61,280 bases of DNA from assembly GCF_001447785.1 (NCBI RefSeq), contig NW_015162578.1, forward strand, positions 100,050-161,329. The letters run 5' to 3'. Shown here piece by piece: positions 4,853 to 51,751 of the stretch. The DNA comes from Gekko japonicus (lineage: Eukaryota). Positions within the stretch are counted from its first letter, which is position 1; every line of letters begins with the position of its first letter. Made by a program: the position numbers and the translations under genes. Under the pieces are notes generated by a model. It was not told the DNA's origin. It made no database searches and worked only from the letters and a program-made list of their open reading frames with translations.

Positions 4853-5785
4853 TTATTTTGATTCTTTTATTGGGAATGACAACATTTTCCTAATCAGTTT
4901 TCTAACAGCATCTTTCATTTCTCTGTTTCTCAGAGTAAAGATCATTGGATTTAACATTGGAGTGATAAGGGTATAGCAAACAGAGGCTATTTTGTCACCT
5001 GGAAATACCCGGAAAGGACGGCCATATATGAACATTCCTGGAATAAAAATTAAGCTCGTAACGATGATTTGTGCAGCACATGTAGACAGGGCTTTGTGTT
5101 TCCCTTCTGTGATATGTGTTCTGATCTTTATCAAAATGACAGTGTATGATACTAGTAAGACACAGAAGATTAGTGTGAGAAGAAATCCACTGTTCGAAAC
5201 CATCAGTAGCTCTGTGATGTATGCATCTGTACAAGCCAGTTTGATGAGCTGTGGGACATCACAGAAGAAATTGTCCAATATATTGGGTCCACAGAAGGGC
5301 AGCTGAAGTATTAATGCTACCTGTATAATGGAGTGGGCAAAGCCACCCAACCAAGCACCTGCCACCAAACCAACACATACTCCTGGATGCATAATAAGCA
5401 AATATTGCAGTGGTCTGTAGATCGCTATGTATCTGTCAACAGCCATTCCTATTAGAAAAAAGGCCACAGCTCCTCCAGTAAAATGGAAGAAGAAAATTTG
5501 GGCAATGCACCACCTGTAGGAGATTGTATTTCTATGGGTGATGAGGTCCCACAGCATTTTGATTGCAGTCACTGTGGAGTCACTGATATCTATGACAGCC
5601 AGGTTGGCCAAAAGGAAGTACATGGGTGTGTGGAACTGAGGCATGAAAATCACGGTAATGATGATTGTCAGATTCCCCAGCCACGTTATGATGTAAATGG
5701 TGAGGAAAAGGAGGAAGAGGATGGTCTGCACCCTCGGATTCTGAGAGAAGCCCAAGAGAATAAATTCTGTTACTGTCGAATTCAT
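4853..5785 (-). CDS. Olfactory receptor, OR4D-like, paralogue A1 (310 aa)
   Basis: FHTPMYFLLANLA, MAVDRYIAIYRPLQY, LDNFFCDVPQLIKLAC, KALSTCAAQ, PMLNPMIFTLRN. The ORF-track start at 5791 is TTG; the true ATG is at 5785. Confidence 0.96.
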   Translation of the reverse strand: MNSTVTEFILLGFSQNPRVQTILFLLFLTIYIITWLGNLTIIITVIFMPQFHTPMYFLLANLAVIDISDSTVTAIKMLWDLITHRNTISYRWCIAQIFFFHFTGGAVAFFLIGMAVDRYIAIYRPLQYLLIMHPGVCVGLVAGAWLGGFAHSIIQVALILQLPFCGPNILDNFFCDVPQLIKLACTDAYITELLMVSNSGFLLTLIFCVLLVSYTVILIKIRTHITEGKHKALSTCAAQIIVTSLIFIPGMFIYGRPFRVFPGDKIASVCYTLITPMLNPMIFTLRNREMKDAVRKLIRKMLSFPIKESK

Positions 5786-7869
5786 TGCCAATGTGAAAAG
5801 TGAGGATTTAATTTCTGTGTATTACATGCCCAGATTTTACCCAGTTCATTATTTTAAGTGGTCTATCATTTTTTGTGTTCAGTCATATGAGAAAGTGAAC
5901 TTCTGTTCATTGGATCAGCTCAGCATGTTCTTAATTAATCTCAATCATAGTTTATCAATCAGTCGAGACACCAGGAGAGTTCACTGTATGTGTGGAGCCA
6001 AATGTTCAATGCTGAAACAAATGTAATCATAAAGCAAAATTAGGTGCTTCAAAAGCATAAATCACGCTACCGTCCTATATCTATAGTTAGGCTACCGTTC
6101 ACATTAACTTCAATGAGATCCAAAGCAATGTAGGCTGTAATTCGATGAACACTTTTTTCCTGAGAGTAAACCCCATGAAATAAAATTAGACTCTCTTATG
6201 ATTATTCATTGGATTACTTTCCGAATTGTATAGTATACAATTGCCTTCTCTAGTGAGAGGAAACAAAACATGTTATCACTGTAGTTATTGTGTTCATATA
6301 CAGCCAGTGGATAAAACCATTAGTCTATCCCCATCATGTACCCCAAGATGGCTTCTTTCTTACTGGTTTGGGAAATGCATTAATGAACCCACCTTGCTTT
6401 GCGTAAATGCAGAGCCCACCTTGCTTTGTATGAACATAATATATATACCCCACATTTTTTAAAAAAAAATGTATTTGTTTATTGAAGTTTAAAATAAAAT
6501 ACAATGAAGTGCTTAGTAAAGCATGAATGAAAAACAATTACAAAATTAATATTAAGCTGGTGGTGAATCGAGGATTGCCATTACAAGTTATCTGCCAATT
6601 TTGAGCTGATCAGTCATCATCATCATCAATTCTTTATTTGGCCTACGACCAGTACAAGTCAGTTATAAAAGCTTTACAATGTCATTAGAAAGTAAAATTG
6701 ATCCGATCTATTGGCAACAATTAGTTAAAATCTGTACATAAAATATCTCTAAGAATTCTACAGGCTACTGAAAAAAAATTGGCACAACTAATGGTAACCT
6801 GTTGATTAGCACCCATTAAAAATTTCTTTAAAATATATACATCTGAACATCCAGAAAAATTGATAAGCAGAGGGGAAATTATATTAGAATGAACTTCCTG
6901 ATAGAAGCGACAGTGGAATAACACATGCTCGACTGACTCCACCTGTTCAGTGCCACACAGACAAATACTTTCCTTCATGTGAATCTTTTTATATCTCCCC
7001 TCTAAAACTGCAGAGGGAAGGACTCGCCATCTCGCCAGAGTAAAAGCTCTCAGTTGACTGGGTACCTCCAGAACAGAGAGATAAGGTGCCGGGGCAACAA
7101 CATATTTAAGCTTCTCGGGTATCAGAGAGTTTGGAACATTGTTAATGTCTCTCGTCATTCTACATCAAGCAAGTTTTATTTGATCATTGATTTTGCTTGA
7201 TCAAAACCCATTTGCAGGAAAAATTCAGGAGAGAAACCCAAATTCTGCAGGTTGAATGGCCTTCTCCCAAGAGGATTGGAAATAGTCTTGCAGGACTAAC
7301 GTTATTAAACCCCATGGGTTATATGATAATTTTAACCAATAGTTAATGGAGGCAAGGCTTACCCTGGCCTCTACCTTAATCATGCCTGACTCGAGACGTA
7401 AGCTGGCATTGGACACACAGCTTGGCACCTGAAATAAAGCTCTCAGGAATCTTGATTGATTTTTTTCTAACGGGGCAAAGTGGGAGGAGGGGGGTCCAAG
7501 AGTTTCTCCATACATTAATTGGGACAATGTTTTTTGCCTGAAACAACCGGAGGGCTGCTTCCCTTAGAGCATGCAAATCTAAGAATGGCCTGTGCAGATT
7601 TTTGACCAGTTGCTGCAGCATACACAGGGTAGTTCTACTCCCTGTGGAGTGAATCATCACCCCTAAGTATTTGAAATAAGGTACTTGTTCCAGCTTATGG
7701 CCATTGATGTTCCAGGACCTTCTTTTCTGACCTTTGCCAAATACAACAATTTTAGTTTTGTTTTTTTACCATAAATTTTATTGAATTATTCATATAAACA
7801 CATGAAGAACAATTTTAGTTTTTTGATAGTTAATCAAAACTATAGCTAGAGACTCTTTGCAATAACAAC

Positions 7870-8255
7870 CAGGGGTCATTTCCCGCGGGAGTGCACAGGA
7901 GCGGAGCACCGGAAGTAAATAGCTCAGGGGGCGGGCACATGCAACAAGCCCCACCCCCTGCTCCCAGCAGCCCTCAGTCAGAGCAAGAAGCAGCTAGGTA
8001 AGTTGCAGAGCCAAAACAGTTCAGTGGCAGCTTTAAGACCAAGTTTTATTCAGGTACAAGTTCTCCCTCTTCTGTGCAGACAGACCTGCACGTTCCTCCC
8101 CCCACCCAATAGCTAGCCATCCAAAACAGTCCAGTGGATCCTGAGAGGTGGGTGTTGCCTTCTGACACACTTCCGGTGATGTCAGGGGGCGTGGCCTATG
8201 AAAATGAGTCATGCTAATGAGCTCCTGCACCTCTTTTTCTACTAAATGACCCCTG
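7870..8255. mobile_element. hAT-superfamily non-autonomous MITE
   Basis: Perfect 12-bp TIR CAGGGGTCATTT/AAATGACCCCTG; 8-bp TSD ATAACAAC (7862-7869, 8256-8263). Confidence 0.92.
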
Positions 8256-12313: not shown

Positions 12314-14100
12314 CATGGCTGAACTAGAATTGGAGACATACACTACTTATGACCTGACTTGGCCAAGTTTTCAGCCTCCGTATTCTATATCAATTGAAGC
12401 TTCCAAACTAAACAGAAAATGTTTTGATAGACAATTCCAGAGGTAACAATGTATGGTGCCAGGGTCAAAATCCGTGTCTGAGAGAAGCCAGTCACGGTGG
12501 GCTTATAACCTCCATTGACGAAACCAACTATCACTGCCTGAGAATTCTCACTGTGATTTTCCAATGTGTAGATAGATGCTGCTGCTGATGATGATGATGG
12601 CAGACAGACAGACCGAGAAGGAATTTTCCTCAAATGCAAATCTGAATATGAATCAGGAATGCAATGAACACATTCCTGGATACTCACCTGGACCCTTGTT
12701 TCATAATGAATTTTCCGATCATTGTCTGAAATTAGGTATTCCTTTGCACACATCCTGCCACTTCAACAATCAAGCAATCCACAAGGCATCCACATGTCAT
12801 AGCTGGGTTTGCCATGGACACATGTTCAGGGAGATTAAAAATACAACTTTAATCCCCCATGGAAATCCAGTGACCTGTTGTGAAAAAGAGCATGCTATGA
12901 TCTGGATCATTACAATAGTGTTCCCATTTGTCACCTAAGACTACTGTCTCATCCCCGCATAATCAAGGGGTTGTGATGACACGGGGATTAGACCACAAGG
13001 GACATCATTAAAATGTATATGTATAACTGAAGTTTCTTTTTTATTATTTGAATATACTGTTTGTGTATGTTGAGATGTAAAGATACGAAGAAAAAAAATT
13101 ACCAGCTACATGGCTCATGAATTTGTGGAAAGGCAGGACCCCTGGGCTCTTACCTACAGACAGGACACTAAGCAATGCACTGATTTCAATGGGATGCATC
13201 CAGCCAGCTTTCCCACTTGTAACTACTCAAAAGGCTATGCTGCAGATTGTGCATATGAACAAAAGCTTCCTGGCATTGCATAATACCCAGGGTCATTGCG
13301 TTATTTAAAAATCTGTACATTAAATGTGCTGCTGTTGTGCCTGAACTATTGACTGCATTCTTTAGTGACATATGGTGAATGTTTTCTTCTTCCAAGAACA
13401 GAAGGGCTGGCTATCTGCTTTGGCATCTTGGCCCATCAAGTTTAGGGGGAGAGTTCAGATCGTAATTGAACCCATACCTACAGCATCATTAATTATGTGA
13501 ACATGACCTCTGCGTCACCTGCTTTGCTATTATAAAAGAGGAATGGAACATCCCTCAAGACTTGTTGGCCAGATGTATTGGCTTGACATTGTCCCAAATC
13601 CAGAACGGGAAAGGCTAGTCAGTAGTGGTGCTCTGTCCAGCAGGATCAGGCTTGCATCAATATAAGGGTGACGATCATCACCCCCAACCTCCTAACACTC
13701 TCAGTCCAGAACACCATTTAATATACTTCTTTATTCCACAACAACAGAAAAATATGGGCAGATAAATTCTTTCTCAGTGTAAATAAATTATGTTTAGGCA
13801 CAATTCCACTGAAGCCAAAGATGAGATGAAGCAAAGACAGATATGAAGTAAGAAAAAGGTGAGTAAGCAGAAAGTAAGACAAAATCTCTCACAATGCAAT
13901 CCGAAGGGGGGGGGGTGAAAATGCTAAGGGAGCTGACTAGTCATTACTTTGGCCTATCTTGTAGTAGTGGTTGGCTCCCAAAGCCTGGGAATGCATGCAC
14001 TCAATGGTGGAAAGGTTTGTTTGCTTGTTTTTGCCATCAACTCACAGCTGATTTATGGCAACCCCTTGGGGTTTTCAAGCCAAAAGAAATTCAGAGGTGG
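12314..14100. promoter_or_regulatory. Duplicated OR upstream cassette, copy 1 (homeodomain + O/E-like motifs)
   Basis: Homologous to 23490-27420 and, inverted, to 37400-39840; minus-strand ACATTTTAATGATGTCCCTTGTGG at 12993-13016; plus-strand donor AAG|GTGAGT at 13859. Confidence 0.55.
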
Positions 14101-17052: not shown

Positions 17053-17985
17053 TTATTTTGATTCTTTTATTGGTAATGAGATCATTTTTCTAATTAGTTT
17101 TCTAATAGTATCCTTAATTTCTCTGTTTCTCAGAGTAAAGATCATTGGATTTAACATTGGAGTGATAAGGGTATAGCAAACAGAGGCTATTTTGTCTCCT
17201 GGAAATACCCGGAAGGGACGGTCATAAATGAACATTCCTGGAACAAAATTTAAGCTTATAACAATGATTTGTGCACCACATGTGGACAGGGCTTTGTGCT
17301 TTCCTTCCGTGACATGAGTTCTGATCTTTATCAAAATGACAGTGTATGATACAAGTAAGACACAGAAGATTAGTGTGAGAAGAAATCCACTGTTTGAAAC
17401 CATCAGTAGCTCTGTGATGTATGTATCTGTACAAGCCAGTTTGATGAGCTGTGGAACATCACAGAAGAAATTGTCCAAAATATTGGATCCACAGAAGGGC
17501 AGCTGAAGTATTAATGCTACCTGTATAATGGAGTGGGCAAAGCCACCCAACCAAGCACCTGTCACCAAACCAACACACACTCCTGGATGCATAATAAGCA
17601 AATATTGCAGTGGTCTGTAGATCGCTATGTATCTGTCAACAGCCATAACTACTAGGAAAAAGACCACAGTTCCTCCAGTAAAATGGAAGAAGAATACCTG
17701 GGTAATACACCAGTTGTAGGAGATGGTATTTGTGTGAGAGCTGAGGTCCCACAGCATTTTGATTGCAGTCACTGTGGAGTCACTGATGTCTGTGACAGCC
17801 AGGTTGGCCAAAAGGAAGTACATGGGTGTGTGGAACTGAGGCATGAAAATCACGGTAATGATGATTGTCAGATTCCCCAGCCACGTTATGATGTAAATGG
17901 TGAGGAAAATGAAAAAGAGGATGGTCTGCACCCTCGGATTCTGAGAGAAGCCCAAGAGAATAAATTTTGTTACTGTCGAATTCAT
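17053..17985 (-). CDS. Olfactory receptor, OR4D-like, paralogue A2 (310 aa)
   Basis: Intact ORF highly similar to A1; ATG at 17985 (the track start is TTG). Confidence 0.96.
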   Translation of the reverse strand: MNSTVTKFILLGFSQNPRVQTILFFIFLTIYIITWLGNLTIIITVIFMPQFHTPMYFLLANLAVTDISDSTVTAIKMLWDLSSHTNTISYNWCITQVFFFHFTGGTVVFFLVVMAVDRYIAIYRPLQYLLIMHPGVCVGLVTGAWLGGFAHSIIQVALILQLPFCGSNILDNFFCDVPQLIKLACTDTYITELLMVSNSGFLLTLIFCVLLVSYTVILIKIRTHVTEGKHKALSTCGAQIIVISLNFVPGMFIYDRPFRVFPGDKIASVCYTLITPMLNPMIFTLRNREIKDTIRKLIRKMISLPIKESK

Positions 17986-23960: not shown

Positions 23961-24873
23961 GTGCCAGAGTCCAAATGCATGTCTGAGAGAAGCCAGTCAC
24001 AGTGGGCTCATAACCTTGTTTGACAAAACCAACTGTCACTGCCTGATAATCTAGAAGCAGTTCTCACTGTGATTTTCCAATGTGTGTCTGTGTGTGTGGG
24101 GGGGGAAATAGGTAGAAGGAATGTCTGTGTAACAAAATAAGGCTGTATCTTCGTAAGTTTTAGGAGCTCAAAATACAAAAAACCATGGCGAGTTCTTTCA
24201 AAGCTATAGGGAAAAGAACGTTATGAAATGATTATTCCTTTTCCTTCCTTTTCTTTTCATTCAGAGATGGATTTAAGGCTGTGTAGTATTTTCCTCAAAT
24301 GAAGAACTGAATATGAATCAGGCATGCAATGAACAAATCCCTGGATACTCACTTGGACCCTTGTTTCATAGTGAGTTTTCTGATCATTGTCTGACATTAG
24401 GTATTCCTTCGCACACGTTCTGCCACTGCAATAATCAAGCAATCCATAAGGTATCCTCATGTCATAGCTGGGTTTGCCATGGACACATGTTCAGGGAGAT
24501 TAAAAATACATCTTTAATCCCTCGGGAAAAACAGTAACAAGTTGTGAAAACAGCATGCTATGATCTGGAACATTACAATGGTGTTCCTATTTGTCACACA
24601 ACAAGAATGCTCTCTCATGCCTGCACAGTGGAAAAATAATCAAGGGGTTTTGGTGACATGAGGATTAAACCACAAGGGACATCATTAAAAAAGTATATGC
24701 ATAACTGAAGTTTCTTTTTTATTTGAATATGTTATTTGTGTATCTTTTTTAAATAAAGATTTTATTAATTTTCCAAAAGAAAAGAAAAGAAAGGAGAAAG
24801 CAAAAAGCACATACAAAGTGAGAACGAAAAAGACAAAAAAAAAGCCTACCCAGCAATGTAAAGATGTAAAGAT

Positions 24874-29858: not shown

Positions 29859-31419
29859 TATGTTTAGTCTGGAGAGCAGACGACAGAGAGGTAATATGAT
29901 AACCATGTTCAAGTACTTTAAGGGTTGTCATATAGAGGATGGTACAGAGTTGATTTCTTTTGTCCCAGAAGATTGGATCAGAACCAACGTGTTGAAATTA
30001 AATAAGAAGACTTTTTGGCTAAACATTAGGAAGAACTTCCTAACAGTTCAAGTGGTTCCTCAGTGGAACAGGCTTCCTTGGGAGATGGTGGGCTCTCCTT
30101 CTCTGGAGGTCCTCAAACAGAGGCTAGATGGCCATCCAACAGCAATGCTGATTGTGTTAACTTAGACAGATCATGAGAGGGAGAGCAGGAAGGGTTGCCT
30201 CAGTGCTTAGTTCTTGTGGCCCTTTCTTACGCACCCAGGGAAATGCTGATCGCCACTTTTGGGTCAGGAAACCATTTTTCTCCAGGCCACTTGGACTGGA
30301 GATCCTGGAGGTTTTTTGTTATCTTCTGGGCACGGAACAGTAGTCACTGCAGGTGTGGAGGGGGAGGCATTTGTGAATTTCCTGCCTTGCACAGGGGGTT
30401 GGACTAGATGACCCTGGAGGTCCATTCCAGCTCTATGATTTTATGACACACAGCCACACACACAAACACACACAGATAGAACACTCCACTCAGTTATAAC
30501 CTATGAATCATTCTGTGCTATGACTTCTAAAAATATAGGTATGATTTTAATTATCTCTCTTGGGGTTTGATTCCCTGTTCACAAAATATCTGATATTGTT
30601 CTTCTGTATGATAAAATGAAATCATTGCAACAGACTGCTGGAATACAGCAATAACATAGGATGTAGGAGTTTTTCAGCATGGGGGTGGGAAACACAGAGC
30701 AGAGAGTAAGCTGGCTGGAAGTGAATTATGTATGCTATGTGATATCATTTTTGTGAGTGCTCAGAGTAGCTTTAGATACACTGATCAGTGTTGCAAGGAA
30801 CAGTGCCATTATATTAGGTATCACCACAGTTTGGTTACAAAATTAAATTCATTAGCTTCAGATCTCTGGGACTGTAAAAAAAAATCAGAAACAGAGTATT
30901 CTTTGATGTAAGGGAAACACATTGCTGGAAGAAAGAGGAGTCACTGAGCTGAAAATGAAGAACTGAAGCCCAGAATCTGACATTTCTTATTTGGTATGTT
31001 GACATTTATGAAAATGTATGATGTACGTGAAGCTCTGACAGTAGGTCCATCTATAGATGGATTTCAGCTTGTGGGAGGGCTGAAGGATTTTGCACTGTGC
31101 TTATTCTTGTGGTAGCATGAGCCATCTGTCTGGCCATTGTCAGAAACAGGACGTTGGACTAGATGGACTATTAATTATGTTCGTAAAACACATTCTTCAA
31201 CTTGAGGAACAAGATATATGTTCTAGATGCATGCCATCAGTTTGTATTGAACTGCATTCTCTCTGTTTTCTTCTCTTAATGATATCTATGTGAAAACTAT
31301 CACATTGCATCTTAATGAGGCAAAATCAGGGATGAAAACATGCTGGGAAGGGCAAATACAGAACATGATCAGGTACACGAAAGGACTTCTTACAACATAT
31401 CTGTGCCAAAAAAGAAAAT

Positions 31420-34273: not shown

Positions 34274-35269
34274 ATGGCTCAGGACAACCAGACCTCAGGA
34301 GTGACAGAATTTATTCTGTTGGGCCTCAGCCAGAATTCCAAAGTGAATTTGTTCCTCTTTCTACTTTTTCTCATTATCTATATAACAACATGGATTGGGA
34401 ACCTCACCATTATCCTCACGGTGATCTTCATGCAACAGCTTCACACACCTATGTACTTTCTACTGGCCAACCTGGCTGGCACAGATATTGTTGATTCCAC
34501 AGTGACTGTTCTCAAAATGCTTGGAGGTCTCCTATCCCAACCCAATACCATCTCCTTTAACTGGTGTATTGCTCAGATTTTCTTTTTCCACTGCATTAGT
34601 GCTGCTGTAGATTTTTTCTTAGTGTTGCTGGCTGTTGATCGCTACATAGCTATCTATAAACCTCTGCAGTACTTGCTCATCATGAAACGAGAAGTTTGTA
34701 TAGGATTTGTAGCAGCTGCATGGATGAGTGGCTTTATTCACTCCATTGTGCAGATTGGGATTCTCGTTCAGCTGCCTTTCTGTGGACCCAACACGCTGGA
34801 CCATTTCTTCTGTGACATCTCCCAGTTTGTCAGACTGTCGTGTACTGACACATACATGACTGAGATACTGATGGTTACTAACAGTGGGCTACTCCTTGTG
34901 GTCATCTTTTTTGCCCTCCTTGTGTCATACTCTGTGATCTTGATCAAGATTAGGACACATGTGATGGAAGGGAGGCACAAAGCCCTTTCTACTTGTGCCG
35001 CTCAGCTCATGGTCGTAAGCATACATTTTGGACCTGCAATGTTCACTTATAATCAGCTTTTCAAAGTATTTCCGACTGAGAAGTTTGTTGCGCTAATGTA
35101 TACTCTCATCACACCAATGTTGAACCCATTAATTTATACTCTGAGAAATGCAGAAATGAAAAATGCTATTAGGAAACTCAAAAGAAAAATTTTGTCTTCA
35201 AGAAGAAATAGTTGTCCTTGCGGCCCAGATTTCAGTTCAGAGTACTTAAAATGTAGAAGATGCATTTAG
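34274..35269 (+). CDS. Olfactory receptor, OR4D-like, paralogue B1 (331 aa)
   Basis: LHTPMYFLLANLA, LAVDRYIAIYKPLQY, KALSTCAAQ, PMLNPLIYTLRN; splice acceptor ttttgCAG ending at 34250. Confidence 0.96.
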   Translation: MAQDNQTSGVTEFILLGLSQNSKVNLFLFLLFLIIYITTWIGNLTIILTVIFMQQLHTPMYFLLANLAGTDIVDSTVTVLKMLGGLLSQPNTISFNWCIAQIFFFHCISAAVDFFLVLLAVDRYIAIYKPLQYLLIMKREVCIGFVAAAWMSGFIHSIVQIGILVQLPFCGPNTLDHFFCDISQFVRLSCTDTYMTEILMVTNSGLLLVVIFFALLVSYSVILIKIRTHVMEGRHKALSTCAAQLMVVSIHFGPAMFTYNQLFKVFPTEKFVALMYTLITPMLNPLIYTLRNAEMKNAIRKLKRKILSSRRNSCPCGPDFSSEYLKCRRCI

Positions 35270-37399: not shown

Positions 37400-39840
37400 C
37401 ATGCTTCCAATTGTTCAGGCTCAACAGCAGCACATTTACTCTAATGTACAGAATTTTGAATAATGCAAGAACCTGCCTATGATGACCATAGTATAGCCTT
37501 TTCCAGGGGTCATTTAGTAGAAAAAGAGGTGCNNNNNNNNNNNNNNNNNNNNNNNNNNNNNNNNNNNNNNNNNNNNNNNNNNNNNNNNNNNNNNNNNNNN
37601 NNNNNNNNNNNNNNNNNNNNNNNNNNNNNNNNNNNNNNNNNNNNNNNNNNNNNNNNNNNNNNNNNNNNNNNNNNNNNNNNNNNNNNNNNNNNNNNNNNNN
37701 NNNNNNNNNNNNNNNNNNNNNNNTCAATCCTGCAGAGCTTGCTGGCTCTGAGCGATTTACAGTTACTCATTTTTCACGAGGGACTAACAATGATTTGTGG
37801 GGTTAGGGAGGACAACATATATACATATTAATTCACACACATTTGCAGCCGATGAGGGTTTTGTTCAGTTTGAAGATGAGACGTGATCCAGACCACATTT
37901 TCCCCCCTCGGCCTGGTTTGATGGCGTCAGCTCTCTCCAGACTCCTTTGAGTTGTAATGCCGCACTGCCACTGCCTGGCTGGAACGGCCCATTACAGGCT
38001 GTCTTCATGCCAAGGAGATCTCTCTAGGTTTTCCAATCTTGTAAGCTGGACTTCCGTTCCACGGCTAACACCGCTCCACCCCACGAGGGGGTGGTTCAGG
38101 GTTCCCACTCTCTCTAAGGAGTGGTACCCATTTTATCTACTCGCCGAAGCTTTCGAACCGCTGGGTAGATGGCGAGCTGGGGACAGGGCTGGTAGCTCAC
38201 ACCAGCGTGGGGCTAGAACTGACAGCAAGCCTGTTCAGCTCAGATGTTACTATTATAACCAGAGGATAAATCCGATGTGCCACCGCTCCCCTTCATTAGC
38301 ATAATTCATTAGCATAACTCATTTGCATATACCACACCCCCTGACATCACCAGAAGTGTGTCAAAAAGCAACACCCACCACTTAGGCTCCACTGGACTGT
38401 TTTGGATTGCTAGCTATTGGGGAGGGGGAACATGCAGAATCTGTCCTCACAGAGGAGGGAGAGCTTGTACCTGAATAAAACTTGGTCTTAAAGGTGCCAC
38501 TGGACTGTTTTGGACTGGGGGGCTCTGCAACTTACCTGGATGCTGCTTGCTCTGACTGAGGGCTGCTGGGAGCAGGGGGTGGGGTTTATTACATGTGCCC
38601 ACCCCCTGGGCTCTTTACTGCCTGAGCTCCGCTCCTGTGCACTCCTGCAGGAAATGACCCCTGGCCTTTTCAGTGATAAAAGGAACCCTTTCTATTTCTT
38701 TCACCAATGGTAGCATGCATCCCACTGAAATAATGACATTACTCCACATCCTTTCTGTTGGTAAGAACTGGGATCCAAGGGTCCTACATTACCACATGTC
38801 ACTAGTAATATCTGTAATATATTTTAACATCTAGGGATACACAAGCAGCATATTCAATTTGAAAAGGAAGTTCAGTTATGCATCTACTTTTTAATGATAT
38901 TCCTTGTGGGCTGATCCCCAGATCATTGAAATCCCTTGATTATCTTTCCACTGTGCTAGAGCAAGGCAGTAGTTTTTTTGTGTGATCAACAGGAATGCAT
39001 AGTAACCATTCAGATCATGGCATGCTACTTTCACAACATGTCACTGGATTTCCCTGGGGTGGGGTTAAAGATGTATCTTTTATCTCTCTGAATATGTGGG
39101 AAATGCCAAATCCAGCTATGATATGATGAAGCCTTGTGGATGATTTGATTATTGTAGTGGCAGGACCTGTGCAGAGGAATGCCTAAAGCCAGGCAATGAT
39201 TGGAAAACTCTGTACTAAACAAAGGTCTAGGTTAGTATACATTTTTTCTCAGTGTTTAACTAATTGATATTCGAATGTTCATTTGAGGAGCCCTAAATCC
39301 ATCTCTGAAACAAAGGAAGTTATCATTTGATACCATTCATTTCCCACCTCTTTGGTGGAAAGAGGTTGCCATAGCTTTTGGTCTTTTGGACTTGCATTGG
39401 GGAAAAAGTTGTTGCTGTTGTTTTTTCCACACATTGGAAAATCACAGTAAAAATTGCTTCTAGATCACAGGAGGTAACAGGGAGTTTTGTCAATAAAGGT
39501 TCATGAGCCCACTGTGACTGGCTTCTCTCGAACAAGAATCTAGCCAACCATGTATTGTTACTTCTTGTATTAACTTTTATTTCATTTCATTTTATTGGAT
39601 TTATGTCCTGCTCTTCCTGCAGAGCAGGCTCAGGGTGGGTTCCATCAGACATCATAAACAATATACAACATACAAAAATTAAAACAGTTAAAATGCGAAT
39701 GAAATAGAACATTCCTCTGGTGCAAGTCATAGTTAAAGCCTTTTCTGTTTGATTTGGAAGCTGCAATTGACATAGAATACTAAGGCTCAAAATTTGGCCA
39801 GGACAGGTAACAAGCAGGAGATGTCTCCCAGTCCCATTCA
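37400..39840. promoter_or_regulatory. Duplicated OR upstream cassette, copy 3 (inverted), upstream of A3
   Basis: Reverse-complement homology to copies 1 and 2; ACTTTTTAATGA at 38886-38897 followed by TATTCCTTGTGG; O/E site TCCCTGGGG at 39051-39059. Confidence 0.55.
37504..38663. mobile_element. hAT MITE of the same family as 7870-8255, opposite orientation, with an internal insertion and gap
   Basis: Same 12-bp TIR; 8-bp TSD GCCTTTTC (37496-37503, 38664-38671). Confidence 0.9.
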
Positions 39841-40410: not shown

Positions 40411-40825
40411 ACATCATGGCTACCCACTTGAATCTCACAGAAATCAGTAAGTGTTAAATCTGCATTAAGGATGATTTTGAATTTCTTGTCCCTGATGCTT
40501 CGACTCGACCCACCCACCCCCAGTCAATTCTGATTCTCACTAGAGTTGATCAAACATACCAATATTCAAATCTGCACCAGTTTATATTTTGTTGGCCTGT
40601 TTTTCTCTCTCTATTAAATGGACATGCTTAACCATTCTATTTTTAGCATATAAATGATGAAAGACACAGAAACAGAGCATAGGGCATAAAAGAGACAAGT
40701 GCATAGGGAATAGTAAGCTTACATCTCCAACAGATGAAAACAAATAGAAGCGATGAAGAGAATCCATTCACATATCTCATGCATATAGTATTGCAGAACT
40801 CAACAGGTAAGTTCTTTGGGAGGGG

Positions 40826-41005: not shown

Positions 41006-41928
41006 CAGAGAGATAAGATAATACCTAGTGTTAGATCACTTTTTCTATAGCACCTAAGGTGGTAAGTATAGGAACCTGTGATGCAGATGGAAATTAAATG
41101 CTACAAAAATGTGGGATATAATGTATAGATTATTCTACTATAACTTGGACCCTTTGGTCCTGCTCTGCTCACAGGAGCCAATTTTATTCACAAAATAGGG
41201 GGAGGATTTTCCGATTCTGCATTCCCACTGCAAAGCCCCCTCACCTTAGAAAGGTGTACAAACTTAGGAGAGTACTGTTTGTTGTGTGGGGTATAAATTA
41301 TATCCACACAAAGCAAGATGAGCTCTCAGTAGTCTGTTGATTAGTGGATTTCCCAAACCAGTAAGAAAGAATTCATATTGGGGTACATGACAAGCATAGA
41401 ATAATGGTTTTATTCACTGGCTCTATATGAACAAAATAACTACAGCTTAGTTAGGTTTTGTTTCCTTCAGACTAGAAATGGCAGTTGTAATACTATGCAA
41501 TTTGGAGAGCAATCCTAAACTGGACTAGTTATAAGTTTAATTTTATTTCATGGGGCTTACTCCCAGGAAAGAAGTGTTCTTAGGATTGCAGCCTACATCG
41601 CTCTCGATCCCATTCAAGGTAATGTGACTGGTAACCTAACGATATACAGGACAGCAGCATGAGATATGCTTTTGATTCACCTAATTTTGCTTTACGATTA
41701 AATTTGTTTCAGCATAGAACTTCTGGCTCCAGACATGCTGAACTCTCCTGGTATGTCTACTTATGACAAACTATAATTAAGAACGTGCTCAGCAGACCCA
41801 ATGAATAGAAGTTCACTTCTGCACATAAAAGAATACAGAAATTATGGACAACCTAAAATAATGAATTTAGTAAAATCTAGGTATGTAATATACAGAAGTT
41901 AATTATATATATAAGGGGGGAAACGGCA

Positions 41929-42861
41929 ATGAATACAACAGTAACAGAATTTATTCTCTTGGGCTTGTCTCAGAATCCAAGGGTGCAGACCATTCTCTTC
42001 CTCATTTTTCTTGCCATTTACATTACGACCTGGCTGGGGAATCTGACAATCATTCTTGTTGTAATTTTCATGCCTCATTTCCACACACCCATGTACTTCT
42101 TTTTGGCCAACCTGGCTGTCATAGACATCAGTGACTCCACAGTGACTTCAATCAAAATGCTGTGGGATCTCAGCTCCCACACAAATACCATCTCCTACAA
42201 CTGGTGTATTGCCCAGGTATTCTTCTTCCATTTTACTGGAGGAACTGTGGTCTTTTTCCTAGTAGTTATGGTTGTTGACAGATACATAGCGATCTACAGA
42301 CCACTGCAATATTTGCTTATTATGCATCCAGGAGTTTCTGTTGGTTTGGTGACAGGCGCTTGGTTGGGTGGCTTTGCCCACTCCATTGTACAGGTAGCAT
42401 TTATACTTCAGCTGCCCTTCTGTGGACCCAATGTATTGGACAATTTCTACTGTGATGTCCCACAGCTCATCAAACTGGCTTGTACAGATATATACGTCAC
42501 AGAGCTACTGATGGTTTCAAACAGTGGGTTTCTTCTCACACTAATCTTCTGTGTCTTACTTGTATCATACACTGTAATTCTGATAAAGATCAGAACACAT
42601 GTCACAGAAGGGAAACATAAAGCCCTGTCTACATGTGCTGCACAAATCATAGTTATGAGCTTAATTTTTATTCCAGGAATGTTCATATATGACCGTCCTT
42701 TCCAGGTATTTCCAGGAGATAAAATAGTTTCCGTGTGCTATACTTTTATCACTCCAATGTTGAATCCAATGATCTTTACTCTGAGAAACAGAGAAATGAA
42801 GGATACTATTAGAAAACTAGTTAGAAAAATGATGTCATTTGTAATAAAAGAATCAAAATAA
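41929..42861 (+). CDS. Olfactory receptor, OR4D-like, paralogue A3 (310 aa)
   Basis: Intact ORF; inverted paralogue of A1/A2 including flanks. Confidence 0.96.
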   Translation: MNTTVTEFILLGLSQNPRVQTILFLIFLAIYITTWLGNLTIILVVIFMPHFHTPMYFFLANLAVIDISDSTVTSIKMLWDLSSHTNTISYNWCIAQVFFFHFTGGTVVFFLVVMVVDRYIAIYRPLQYLLIMHPGVSVGLVTGAWLGGFAHSIVQVAFILQLPFCGPNVLDNFYCDVPQLIKLACTDIYVTELLMVSNSGFLLTLIFCVLLVSYTVILIKIRTHVTEGKHKALSTCAAQIIVMSLIFIPGMFIYDRPFQVFPGDKIVSVCYTFITPMLNPMIFTLRNREMKDTIRKLVRKMMSFVIKESK

Positions 42862-46700: not shown

Positions 46701-49339
46701 CCTCCGAGCTTGTTGGTCCAGCCTCCTTTGCTCGCTTTTTGCCTCACCAGCCACCGCCATACTTCTCTGCTGCCGCCGCTCATCGCTCACCGCTGCCGCC
46801 GCTACACAAGGGACGGGTCCCCCCCCGCTCTAATAGCAAGTACCCATTTGTCTATTCGCCCTTTAATGGGCTTTCAAGCCGCTGGGTGGGCGGGAGCTGG
46901 AACATAGGGCTGAGAGCTCACCCCGGCCATGGTTGGGCTCGAACAGCTGTTAATGCAGGCTTCACTTACCGTCTGCGCCACCGCTCCGGCTTAGCTACCA
47001 CAACTTATTGCTTGGTCATTGAGAAATGATTTCCCTGCCACAAAATCAGCCTCAAACTATATCTATATGATATTTAGTTGTTCAGTTACTAATTTCTGAT
47101 TAATCATAGGCCATCCATAAACCAAGGATTGAGGAGCAGTATTCAGGACTTTTTTTTACAAAGATTGTGAATGAAATCATCTACCACAAGAACTCTCACA
47201 GCTAATTTGTAATCACCAATGACTAGCATTTTCTTCTTCAAAATGCCATCCACATTTTGCATGGATTTGAAGATTATTTTAGGGCAATTTTTTTTACATT
47301 ATTGATGTGATGAAAACTGTAGTGCCACCCTGAAGTGATCCATACAATACAATTGTCAACCTCCTCTGGTATTAGAGAATGTCATTTTGAAACTCGACCA
47401 ATAGTTTAAGTTACTTCAAGAATTGCCATCCAATTTCATCTAATGGAAAATTCCTTGGTGAATGTGGAGGTTCCTGTTTGGAAGAAATATCTGCAGAATG
47501 TCATGAGAAGACATATATAAAAGGTTTTAGTGGTAGGGAGTAACTCCACGTATGTGTAAGTTGCTACTGGCGGCAAAACCATGATTGTTCAAGTGACCTT
47601 TAATTTTATTTATACAGTGATAGAAGAAGGGTGCCCTTAATCCTATCCCCTTATTTATTTACTTATTCATTTATTGGATTTGTTTATACCCCACATTTTT
47701 CCCCATTGGGGACCTAAAGGAGCTTACATTAGTCTCCTCTCCTTCATTTTATCCTCACAACAACCTTGTGAGGGAGGTTAGACTGAGAGAGTGTAACTGA
47801 GATAAAGTCACCGAGCAATTTTCCATGACACAAGTGGGATTCAAAGCTGGATCTTTCAGATACAAGTCCATTTAACATCCTTTTCTTTGTTATTTCATTG
47901 ACAAGCACACATACCTACACCCGAACTGTTTTCATCCATTCTGTGAAAAAGGGCTTACATGTATCCGCAAGTATCCAGGGGAAGAAATTTTAATGGAGAA
48001 AAAGGGCTAATGGGGAGGGTTAAATAGCCTCTCCCCACATGTCCCTTTCTTCCTTTAAACTACAGTCCTCATTCCACTCTCCAGAGAAAGAAGATGTAAT
48101 AAAAAGGATTATGGAACTACCTGCTATACTTAGTTTCGCCATCAAATCTGTCTTCGGAGATGGGATATGAAGCAAACAGGAGGTTTCTGCTTGGGTGAAA
48201 CATGCAGAAGGAAAAATAACTTTAATAAGATTACTGAAATTTATTTTAGAAATTTGAGTATTTCTATCATACTCCATCGGTTCTTCACTCATTGGTTTAA
48301 ACAGTTGTATGTGTAAATCTTGCTCATGCCCAAGGAAAGAAAATTAGTACTCAGGTGTAATATTTGTACAACATTTATCCAATTGTGTTTTAAAGTGTAG
48401 AAAGTACTTCAATAGCCTCCCTTGTGACTTGATTCCCCATTCACAGAAAAAGAGAGAAAACATGATTTGACACAACCTTATAAAGCTCAATCATAGCTGT
48501 AGCATAGAGGAGTAACATTTTTAAATGAGACTAAAATTTTTGCTGCAGAAGCCTTTCATTCTGAATTTGGTTAAAAGAAATTAATTAAGCAATACATTCA
48601 CTAACAAAGACTACATGAATTATTGCCTATTATTATCTTGACTTCTCTAAGTCTTTTTAGGAACAGTGTTCATCAGCACCACGGAAAACAGCCTCAGAAT
48701 ATTATTGATTAGAAAGGTACATGCTTGCTTTAACTATCATATTACGTGATTCTGGAGCAGACAATACTTAAATTTGTCTCATTCCTTTTGAGAGAAACAT
48801 AAACTAACTCATCTTTGAAATAATTTATCAGCTGTATATCTATGTCATTGGGAAAGAACCAGAGACCAGTTCTTTTTCTGGAAGAAATATGGAATTATTG
48901 GTTGAAAATCAAGAACTTTGATGAAGAATTGTGGGAGTGTTCATTGGCATGGACACAACACAGATACCCTAGGACTTATTACTTGGTATGTTGCCTTGTT
49001 TTATTCCAATGCAAAACAATATGGGATTGGTTGCAAAATATATTGGGTTAGATTCAATCAACCTTTATGCTTGTGAAAAAGAGAGGAAGGGGGCCCATTT
49101 GAAAATGAGAAAGGGTTTGCTGGAGATCATGGGACCTGCATGGAGAAATGCTATGTGGTATGGGGGCTCTAGTAAGGAGGAGAATTAGGAGTTAGTAAGT
49201 TAGTAAGGGGAGAGTTAGTAAGGAGGGCTCTAGTAAGGAGGAGAGCAAAATCAGTTGATCAAAGAGAACAAAACAAATCTGCCTGGAGTTAACTCAGTTA
49301 TTTTTTTAAAAAAATGGTATTCCATTGAATTGAACACAC

Positions 49340-50767: not shown

Positions 50768-51751
50768 ATGGCTCAGGAAAACCTGACCATAAAAGTCACA
50801 GAATTTGTTCTCATAGGTCTTTCGCAGAATCCAAAATGGAATTTCATCCTCTTCCTGATTTTCATCACTATCTACATCACAACCTGGCTTGGAAACCTCA
50901 CCATTATCTTCACAGTGATCTTCATGCGTCAGCTCCACACACCTATGTACTTTCTACTGGCCAATCTGGCTGCTTTAGACATCAGTGATTCCACAGTCAC
51001 TGCTCTTAAGCTGCTAGCAGGCTTCCTATCACACCCCAATACTATTTCTTACAACTGGTGCATTGCTCAGATTTTCTTTTTCCACTTTACTGGTGCTTCT
51101 GTGGATTTCTTGCTCACAGTAATGGCTGTGGATCGGTACATAGCTATCTACAAACCACTGCAGTACTTAACTATCATGAACCAAGGGGTTTGTATAAGCT
51201 TGGTAGCAGGTGCTTGGCTGGGTGGCTTTGTTCACTCCATTGTCCAGATTGGGATCCTCCTTCAGTTGCCCTTTTGTGGACCCAACACGTTGGACAATTT
51301 CTACTGTGACATTCCCCAAGTTGTCAAACTGGCTTGTACAGACACATACATCACCGAGTTGCTGATGGTTTCTAATAGTGGATTGATTGTTGCAGCTATG
51401 TTCTTTGTCTTACTTGTATCATACTCTGTCATTTTAGTGAAGATCAGAACCCATGTCACAGAGGGAAAGCACAAAGCTCTTTCGACTTGTACTGCACATA
51501 TTGTGGTACTGAGCTTAAATTTTGGGCCTGCAATATTCATTTATGACCGGCCTTTCAAGGTATACCCAGGAGATAAGATATTTCAAGTAATGTATACTCT
51601 CATCACCCCAATGCTGAACCCAATGATCTTTACACTGAGAAATACAGAGATGAAAAATGCCATGAAGAAACTCAAAAGGAAAATTGTGTCTTCAAGAAGC
51701 AGAATCTTTACTAGGAAAAAATCCTTTGATCTAGGTTGCACTGAAAAATGA
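50768..51751 (+). CDS. Olfactory receptor, OR4D-like, paralogue B2 (327 aa)
   Basis: MAVDRYIAIYKPLQY, KALSTCTAH, PMLNPMIFTLRN; acceptor gttgCAG ending at 50747. Confidence 0.97.
   Translation: MAQENLTIKVTEFVLIGLSQNPKWNFILFLIFITIYITTWLGNLTIIFTVIFMRQLHTPMYFLLANLAALDISDSTVTALKLLAGFLSHPNTISYNWCIAQIFFFHFTGASVDFLLTVMAVDRYIAIYKPLQYLTIMNQGVCISLVAGAWLGGFVHSIVQIGILLQLPFCGPNTLDNFYCDIPQVVKLACTDTYITELLMVSNSGLIVAAMFFVLLVSYSVILVKIRTHVTEGKHKALSTCTAHIVVLSLNFGPAIFIYDRPFKVYPGDKIFQVMYTLITPMLNPMIFTLRNTEMKNAMKKLKRKIVSSRSRIFTRKKSFDLGCTEK

Follow-up and report, generated by a model that had tools for sequence, protein, structure and literature searches.

A 30-base homeodomain and O/E-like word upstream of OR4-like olfactory receptor genes of Gekko japonicus, a candidate promoter element

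To our knowledge, the regulatory grammar of olfactory receptor (OR) genes has been described almost only in mouse. No description of reptile OR promoters or enhancers was found in the literature searched (titles and the beginnings of abstracts, with subscription journals outside its scope), and as far as this search shows, the lineage is probably new for the kind of element considered here. Mouse OR promoters are reported to be enriched in O/E and homeodomain sites, and a conserved O/E site lies within 200 bases of the start in 246 of 314 of them, according to PMC3247239. In the composite Lhx2/Ebf motif, the two sites are separated by a 1-base spacer (PMC11643329; Sfaktiria probe, PMC5608512), and this motif is described as enriched in mouse enhancers over promoters (PMC5608512). 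A 13-mer reported for the elements H and P as well as for the P3 promoter is set apart from the composite motif in PMC7804114. The P element was found via its similarity to an OR promoter (PMC12547500), and TAATCC is given as one conserved homeodomain variant in the mouse TAAR enhancer TE2 (PMC8213819). Because mouse H and Lipsi are reported to work in zebrafish already (PMC5638857), the use of homeodomain and O/E sites by reptile OR genes would hardly surprise specialists.

The window analyzed here, 61,280 bases of a Gekko japonicus contig (NW_015162578.1, positions 100,050 to 161,329 of the forward strand), contains seven intact OR open reading frames. Genes A to E are OR4-like and form one clade (support, 0.98). 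The reading frames of genes A (4853-5785, minus strand), B (17053-17985, minus strand), and C (41929-42861, plus strand) are intact; genes D (34274..35269) and E (50768..51751) lie on the plus strand. The last exon of gene C spans 41714..42861, with its acceptor at 41713/41714, and D and E are 66% and 73% identical to C, respectively. Among solved receptors, gene C matches consOR4 best, with an E value of 2e-110 (3e-76 for the runner-up). The four-fold silent sites of A, B, and C are 47 to 51% identical to those of D and E; among A, B, and C themselves, these sites are 85 to 90% identical, compared with 73 to 89% for the non-coding flanks, which may reflect gene conversion between the coding regions.

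Each of genes A to D, and probably E, has a single strand-matched copy of a 30-base word upstream of its reading frame, and these four to five copies all fall inside 36 kb. The word is composed of a homeodomain site, 2 bases, an O/E-like site, 2 bases, and TRATYCC. In gene C (38889..38918, plus strand), TTT and TAATGA (38892-38897) are followed after a 2-base gap by TTCCTTGTGG (38900-38909) and, 2 bases on, by TGATCCC (38912-38918). The minus-strand copies of gene B (24661..24690) and gene A (12984..13013) read TAATGA tg TCCCTTGTGG tt TAATCCT and TAATGA tg TCCCTTGTGG tc TAATCCC, respectively. The fourth copy, that of gene D (30545..30574, plus strand), reads TAATTA tc TCTCTTGGGG tt TGATTCC; in the probable fifth, that of gene E (48407..48436, plus strand), the homeodomain half has decayed to CAATAG, and the O/E half, TCCCTTGTGA, and TGATTCC are retained. 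The TAATKR homeodomain site is TAATGA in A, B, and C and TAATTA in D, and it is lost in E, while the O/E-like 10-mer differs from TCCCNNGGGA at three positions in C, two each in B, A, and D, and one in E. The core retained over the copies is TTTTAATKA, 2 bases, the O/E-like 10-mer, 2 bases, and TRATYCC. On the sense strand, the word precedes the ATG by 7.2 kb in A, 6.7 kb in B, 3.0 kb in C, 3.7 kb in D, and 2.4 kb in E.

An earlier, sequence-only reading of this DNA had described much of this arrangement, and its letters hold: TACTTTTTAATGA (38885-38897) runs into TATTCCTTGTGG (to 38909) in the C copy, an O/E site, TCCCTGGGG, lies at 39051-39059, the minus-strand paralogous copies are found at 24670-24694 and 12993-13016, and a perfect O/E site, TCCCTCGGGA, is found at 24518 in the cassette of gene B. 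The 2-base gap that it gave between the homeodomain and O/E sites is the best register in A, B, and C and recurs in D and E. The cassette had been called triplicated; the three copies A, B, and C are indeed present, but the set is larger and also takes in the D copy (at 30548) and the probable E copy. The element was also thought to duplicate along with each OR gene, which agrees with the presence of one homeodomain and O/E-like word per gene, although the term enhancer now appears less likely to apply than promoter.

Compared with mouse class II OR promoters (M71/Olfr151, MOR23, and P3, as described in PMC3247239 and PMC12547500), the gecko arrangement is similar in having TAATKR and O/E-like sites within AT-rich DNA and in lying a few kilobases before the coding exon, one per gene, with spliced non-coding exons between. 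It differs from the promoters described there in that the gecko sites, as read from the sequence, sit side by side with a constant gap of 2 bases, and TRATYCC comes after them. The Greek-Island composite (PMC5608512, PMC11643329) resembles the word in another respect, since in both a homeodomain site is followed by an imperfect Ebf site in the orientation of the Sfaktiria probe; on the letters available, however, the gecko spacer is 2 bases instead of 1, and the gecko copies are per gene rather than intergenic. When A, B, and C are placed in the 1-base register, the O/E half has 5 to 6 mismatches in 8 positions. The three copies are each one position off the loose published composite pattern, which itself matches 3.4 times per kilobase. 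A 2-base insertion into the composite is reported to impair binding of the fusion probe protein (PMC5608512), the shift in the gecko word being 1 base. Identity with the Greek-Island Lhx2/Ebf composite is not supported as far as that class is defined in these sources, because all copies have a 2-base spacer and the O/E half of C at this spacing is mismatched at 3 of 8 positions; the word probably works like an OR homeodomain and O/E element outside the composite class. Several conserved homeodomain sites, a trait of the H, P, and J enhancers, were not found in the blocks around the word in A, B, and C, which share one TAATKR site, with TAATCC in addition in A and B only.

The C copy also resembles AACTTTTTAATGA, the extended homeodomain site present in mouse H and P, in the P3 promoter, and in J-HD1 (PMC7804114, PMC8213819), with 12 of 13 letters and an exact CTTTTTAATGA. 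The 12/13 match noted by the earlier reading is thus correct in its letters, but a special kinship with H and P does not follow from it: the exact 11-mer occurs in one of the five word copies (C), A and B match at 10 of 11 positions and D at 8 of 11, only TTTTAATKA is kept, and the ACT prefix that forms part of the 13-mer is gone from the deeper copies D and E. When the window was shuffled 100 times, a one-mismatch match to AACTTTTTAATGA was reached in 29 shuffles, an exact CTTTTTAATGA in 13, and nine matches to TCCCNNGGG in 15. The 12-mer ACTTTTTAATGA, found among the word copies in C only (38885), occurs 1,013 times genome-wide, compared with 767 for a reversed control. Judging from these shuffle and genome-wide counts, neither the 13-mer match nor the O/E 9-mer exceeds what chance would give, and the 13-mer match was rejected as stand-alone evidence. 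The extended site was not found in 1,311,452 bases of other OR-cluster DNA (110 OR loci), which is uninformative because about 0.5 occurrences of the 12-mer are expected there, and a general enrichment of this site in OR clusters was set aside on this low-power count. In a histogram of homeodomain to O/E spacing over 1.47 Mb, no peak is seen at 1 or 2 bases (counts for spacers of 0 to 8 bases: 7, 9, 15, 11, 6, 6, 10, 23, and 13).

The word lies near the 5' end of a block of about 450 bases that is common to cassettes A, B, and C (38836..39289 in C, plus strand). Among these three cassettes, the 25-mer at the word is invariant at 21 of 25 columns, compared with 67 to 72% for the block, which is not significant, as four other places tie with it and 4.7% of windows reach its score. 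The identity of the block between C and A or B (76 to 77%) is no higher than that of other non-coding segments (73 to 79%). Constraint argued from A, B, and C alone was rejected for want of excess conservation, and on their evidence chance plus duplication could suffice. The excess over chance comes from the deeper paralogue copy at 30548 only. A profile trained on A, B, and C was run over the remainder of the contig together with roughly 1.3 Mb from other OR clusters (125 OR loci overall; 2,933,276 positions), in which the D site, on the sense strand, scores 25.6 bits and the next best site 16.2 bits; the E site ranks 21 among non-training sites in the same ungapped scan. The first two of three non-self hits obtained with nhmmer are the D site (E value, 0.1) and 48408-48448 upstream of gene E (E value, 2). 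The A, B, and C words are identical to that of D at 22 to 23 of 30 positions and to that of E at 19 of 30.

As a control, 749 ungapped 30-base windows tiled over the non-coding cassette alignable among A, B, and C were scored upstream of gene D, where each of the 13 highest-ranking windows overlaps the word (27.4) and the best of the 723 others reaches 18.0. Upstream of E, the word (18.5) falls below a non-motif window (20.3), so that E is not an outlier alone, and the summed score over D and E is 44.6 for the word versus 28.8 for the best other window. When D and E are aligned with each other, the stretch containing the word is one of three alignable pieces. The word is therefore better kept in D than any other non-coding window of the cassette, which argues for selection, and because this window had been named in advance without reference to D, we regard the result as moderate evidence that the word has been under selection across a deep duplication. 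Neutral simulation without indels gives P values of 0.0005, 0.002, and 0.009 at 50, 55, and 60% identity; if neutral identity is 60%, the survival of the word in D falls short of significance once the number of independent windows (about 37) is taken into account. Among the matches listed, DNA runs from three further organisms (X9, X10, and X14) align to the block in low copy and at 84 to 91% identity, and a fourth (X3) covers its 3' part only. The cover in X14 is weak or absent on either side of 38840-39325, and these alignments may give a hint of constraint, at the level of the block only.

Genome-wide, patterns fitted to the word match copies A to D and contig C36492 and nothing else, and the controls give zero matches; this contig, which shares 98.9% identity with cassette A across 1.4 kb, was excluded as an independent copy. 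None of 15 more distant OR4-like genes has the word in the upstream DNA searched (3.3 to 9.5 kb for each). The read depth at the word is that of low-copy DNA. An origin as a relic of the interspersed repeat at 41447-41650, which it partially resembles, was rejected, as the repeat profile misses all five sites. A high-copy interspersed repeat adjoins the C block upstream (38306-38664; also at 7869-8220), and just past the block, 20 bases at 39427-39446 and another run at 39514-39526 are invariant in A, B, and C.

The block likely comprises a promoter and a first non-coding exon. A second O/E-like site (39051..39060, plus strand) has one mismatch in C, is perfect in B (24518-24527), and is degenerate in A, being invariant at only 4 of 10 positions across the three. 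A splice donor, TAG/GTTAGT, is predicted at 39228..39236 (plus strand), 340 bases past the word, and the exon would end at 39230; its homologues are CAA/GTGAGT in B and CAG/GTGAGT in A, and among the matches listed, position 39228 is C in the contigs of all four other-organism runs, giving CAG/GT. Farther downstream, TTTTAGCATATAAATG (40622..40637, plus strand) is invariant in A, B, and C and resembles both an acceptor (AG/CAT) and a TATA box. A non-coding exon that ends at 40806 (seen from 40728 onward, plus strand) is spliced onto 41714: in run X16, a single contig (159 bases; depth, 3.8; 0 mismatches) joins 40728-40806 to 41714 and skips 906 bases bounded by GT..AG, from which we conclude that the gene C transcript contains a spliced non-coding exon, X13 and X16 being presumed RNA runs. 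A contig of X13 starts exactly at 41714, the gene C acceptor. Runs X13, X16, and X17 (depth, 2 to 5) have no cover over 38700-39545, which is evidence neither way, and run X5 was set aside, as its contigs start at TTAA sites and it resembles reduced-representation DNA. In run X13, one contig departs from the gene C exon at 41880-41881, at a donor-like AG/GTATGT 48 bases before the ATG, and continues with 58 unplaced letters, possibly an isoform skipping the coding region.

The word is real and is probably a functional element of a known kind. We favor, with modest confidence, the reading that it forms the upstream part of each gene's promoter, in which the block would supply the promoter and the first exon; among the readings weighed here this is the most likely because each gene has its own copy and because a second O/E site and a homologous donor follow, the donor 340 bases past the word. 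By analogy with mouse work (PMC3247239, PMC12547500), Lhx2 or Emx2 is predicted to bind TAATKR, and Ebf the O/E sites, in olfactory neurons. The start of transcription would fall in the interval from the second O/E site (39051) to the donor at 39230, and the transcript would then pass through one or two non-coding exons, one of which ends at 40806, before it reaches the coding exon (41714). The element would be copied along with every gene duplication and, in a neuron choosing its receptor, may serve as a landing site that permits the gene to be switched on and tunes how often it is chosen. Given its place before four, possibly five, related genes and its persistence relative to the flanking DNA, it is likely that the word belongs to the promoter of each gene and that it is no copy of the long-range enhancers of mouse.

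Another arrangement, possible but on the unlikely side, is that the word is a gene-linked upstream enhancer, promoter derived and comparable to the P element, which acts from 1.7 kb on a start behind the TATA-like word at 40628-40636, with exon 1 ending at 40806. TATAAAT does lie in the 16-base stretch invariant in A, B, and C, 176 bases ahead of the donor supported by RNA, but the same 16 bases also resemble a splice acceptor preceded by a long pyrimidine tract, no conserved O/E site was seen by eye in the preceding 200 bases, and no counterpart of the TATA-like segment was detected in D or E. According to PMC5608512, mouse enhancers typically have homeodomain and O/E sites next to each other, an arrangement depleted in promoters, and the likeness to an OR promoter through which P was discovered (PMC12547500) points the same way; against this, a homologous donor closes the upstream block, and the single canonical TAATKR common to the three blocks contrasts with the several sites of known enhancers. 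A true cluster enhancer of the H, P, or Greek-Island type, controlling many OR genes at long range through a composite Lhx2/Ebf motif, appears very improbable: the 2-base spacer (with 5 to 6 of 8 O/E mismatches in the 1-base register), the offset from a published pattern that is itself frequent, and the presence of four to five strand-matched copies within 36 kb, one per gene, all speak against it, even though the C copy matches AACTTTTTAATGA at 12 of 13 positions, has its O/E-like half adjacent, and lies inside an OR cluster.

It is improbable, too, that tandem duplication spread a neutral, AT-rich sequence whose likeness to mouse motifs would be due to chance and whose match in D would be a lucky survivor. 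Every motif taken singly is at chance level, A, B, and C are one duplication family with no excess conservation of the block, E is without the homeodomain half, and the extended site is absent from the 1.31 Mb of other OR-cluster DNA (110 loci; low power, about 0.5 expected). These points fit a neutral origin, but the window named beforehand is the best kept of 749 in D, the simulated P values range from 0.0005 to 0.009 (without indels), and the word stretch is among the three pieces still alignable between D and E. A more far-reaching reading, which we consider doubtful, is that the word, a rigid site in three parts (a homeodomain site, an Ebf site, and a second homeodomain site of TAATCC type, with 2 bases between each pair), is built into every gene of this lizard OR4 clade and might be a private composite choice element with a non-mammalian Lhx2/Ebf spacing, a living promoter-borne state ancestral to shared enhancers such as P. 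The word offers a concrete 30-base reptile candidate with five natural variants, one lacking the homeodomain half, by virtue of which it can be tested directly whether a 1-base or a 2-base spacing matters and whether each half is required.

Composites with the mouse-like spacing were observed elsewhere in the genome. An H-like 1-base composite (extended site plus O/E-like site) has two exact matches, G000:C27:163673 and G000:C5531:1512907, and both contigs are absent among the 139 OR matches listed. A sister OR4-like gene (59% identical to C; G000:C2868:35537, minus strand, L011) has TTTTTAATGA, one base, and TCCCAGTGAA 3.2 kb upstream. This site, whose spacing equals the 1-base spacing of mouse, opens a 420-base block shared with a paralogue (G000:C7481:67795-68688); in the counterpart of the paralogue, 4.8 kb upstream, the surrounding letters are kept and TAAGGA replaces TAATGA. 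At G000:C11834:421745 (minus strand, L120), about 17 kb past the edge of a class I OR cluster, TAATTG, one base, and TCTCCAGAGA form a Sfaktiria-like composite, a candidate J-like element. Within the class I cluster, at G000:C11834:492716 (minus strand, L117:2680-2725), two TAATTG sites and one TAATTA site lie within 45 bases, one of them as CTTTTTAATTG.
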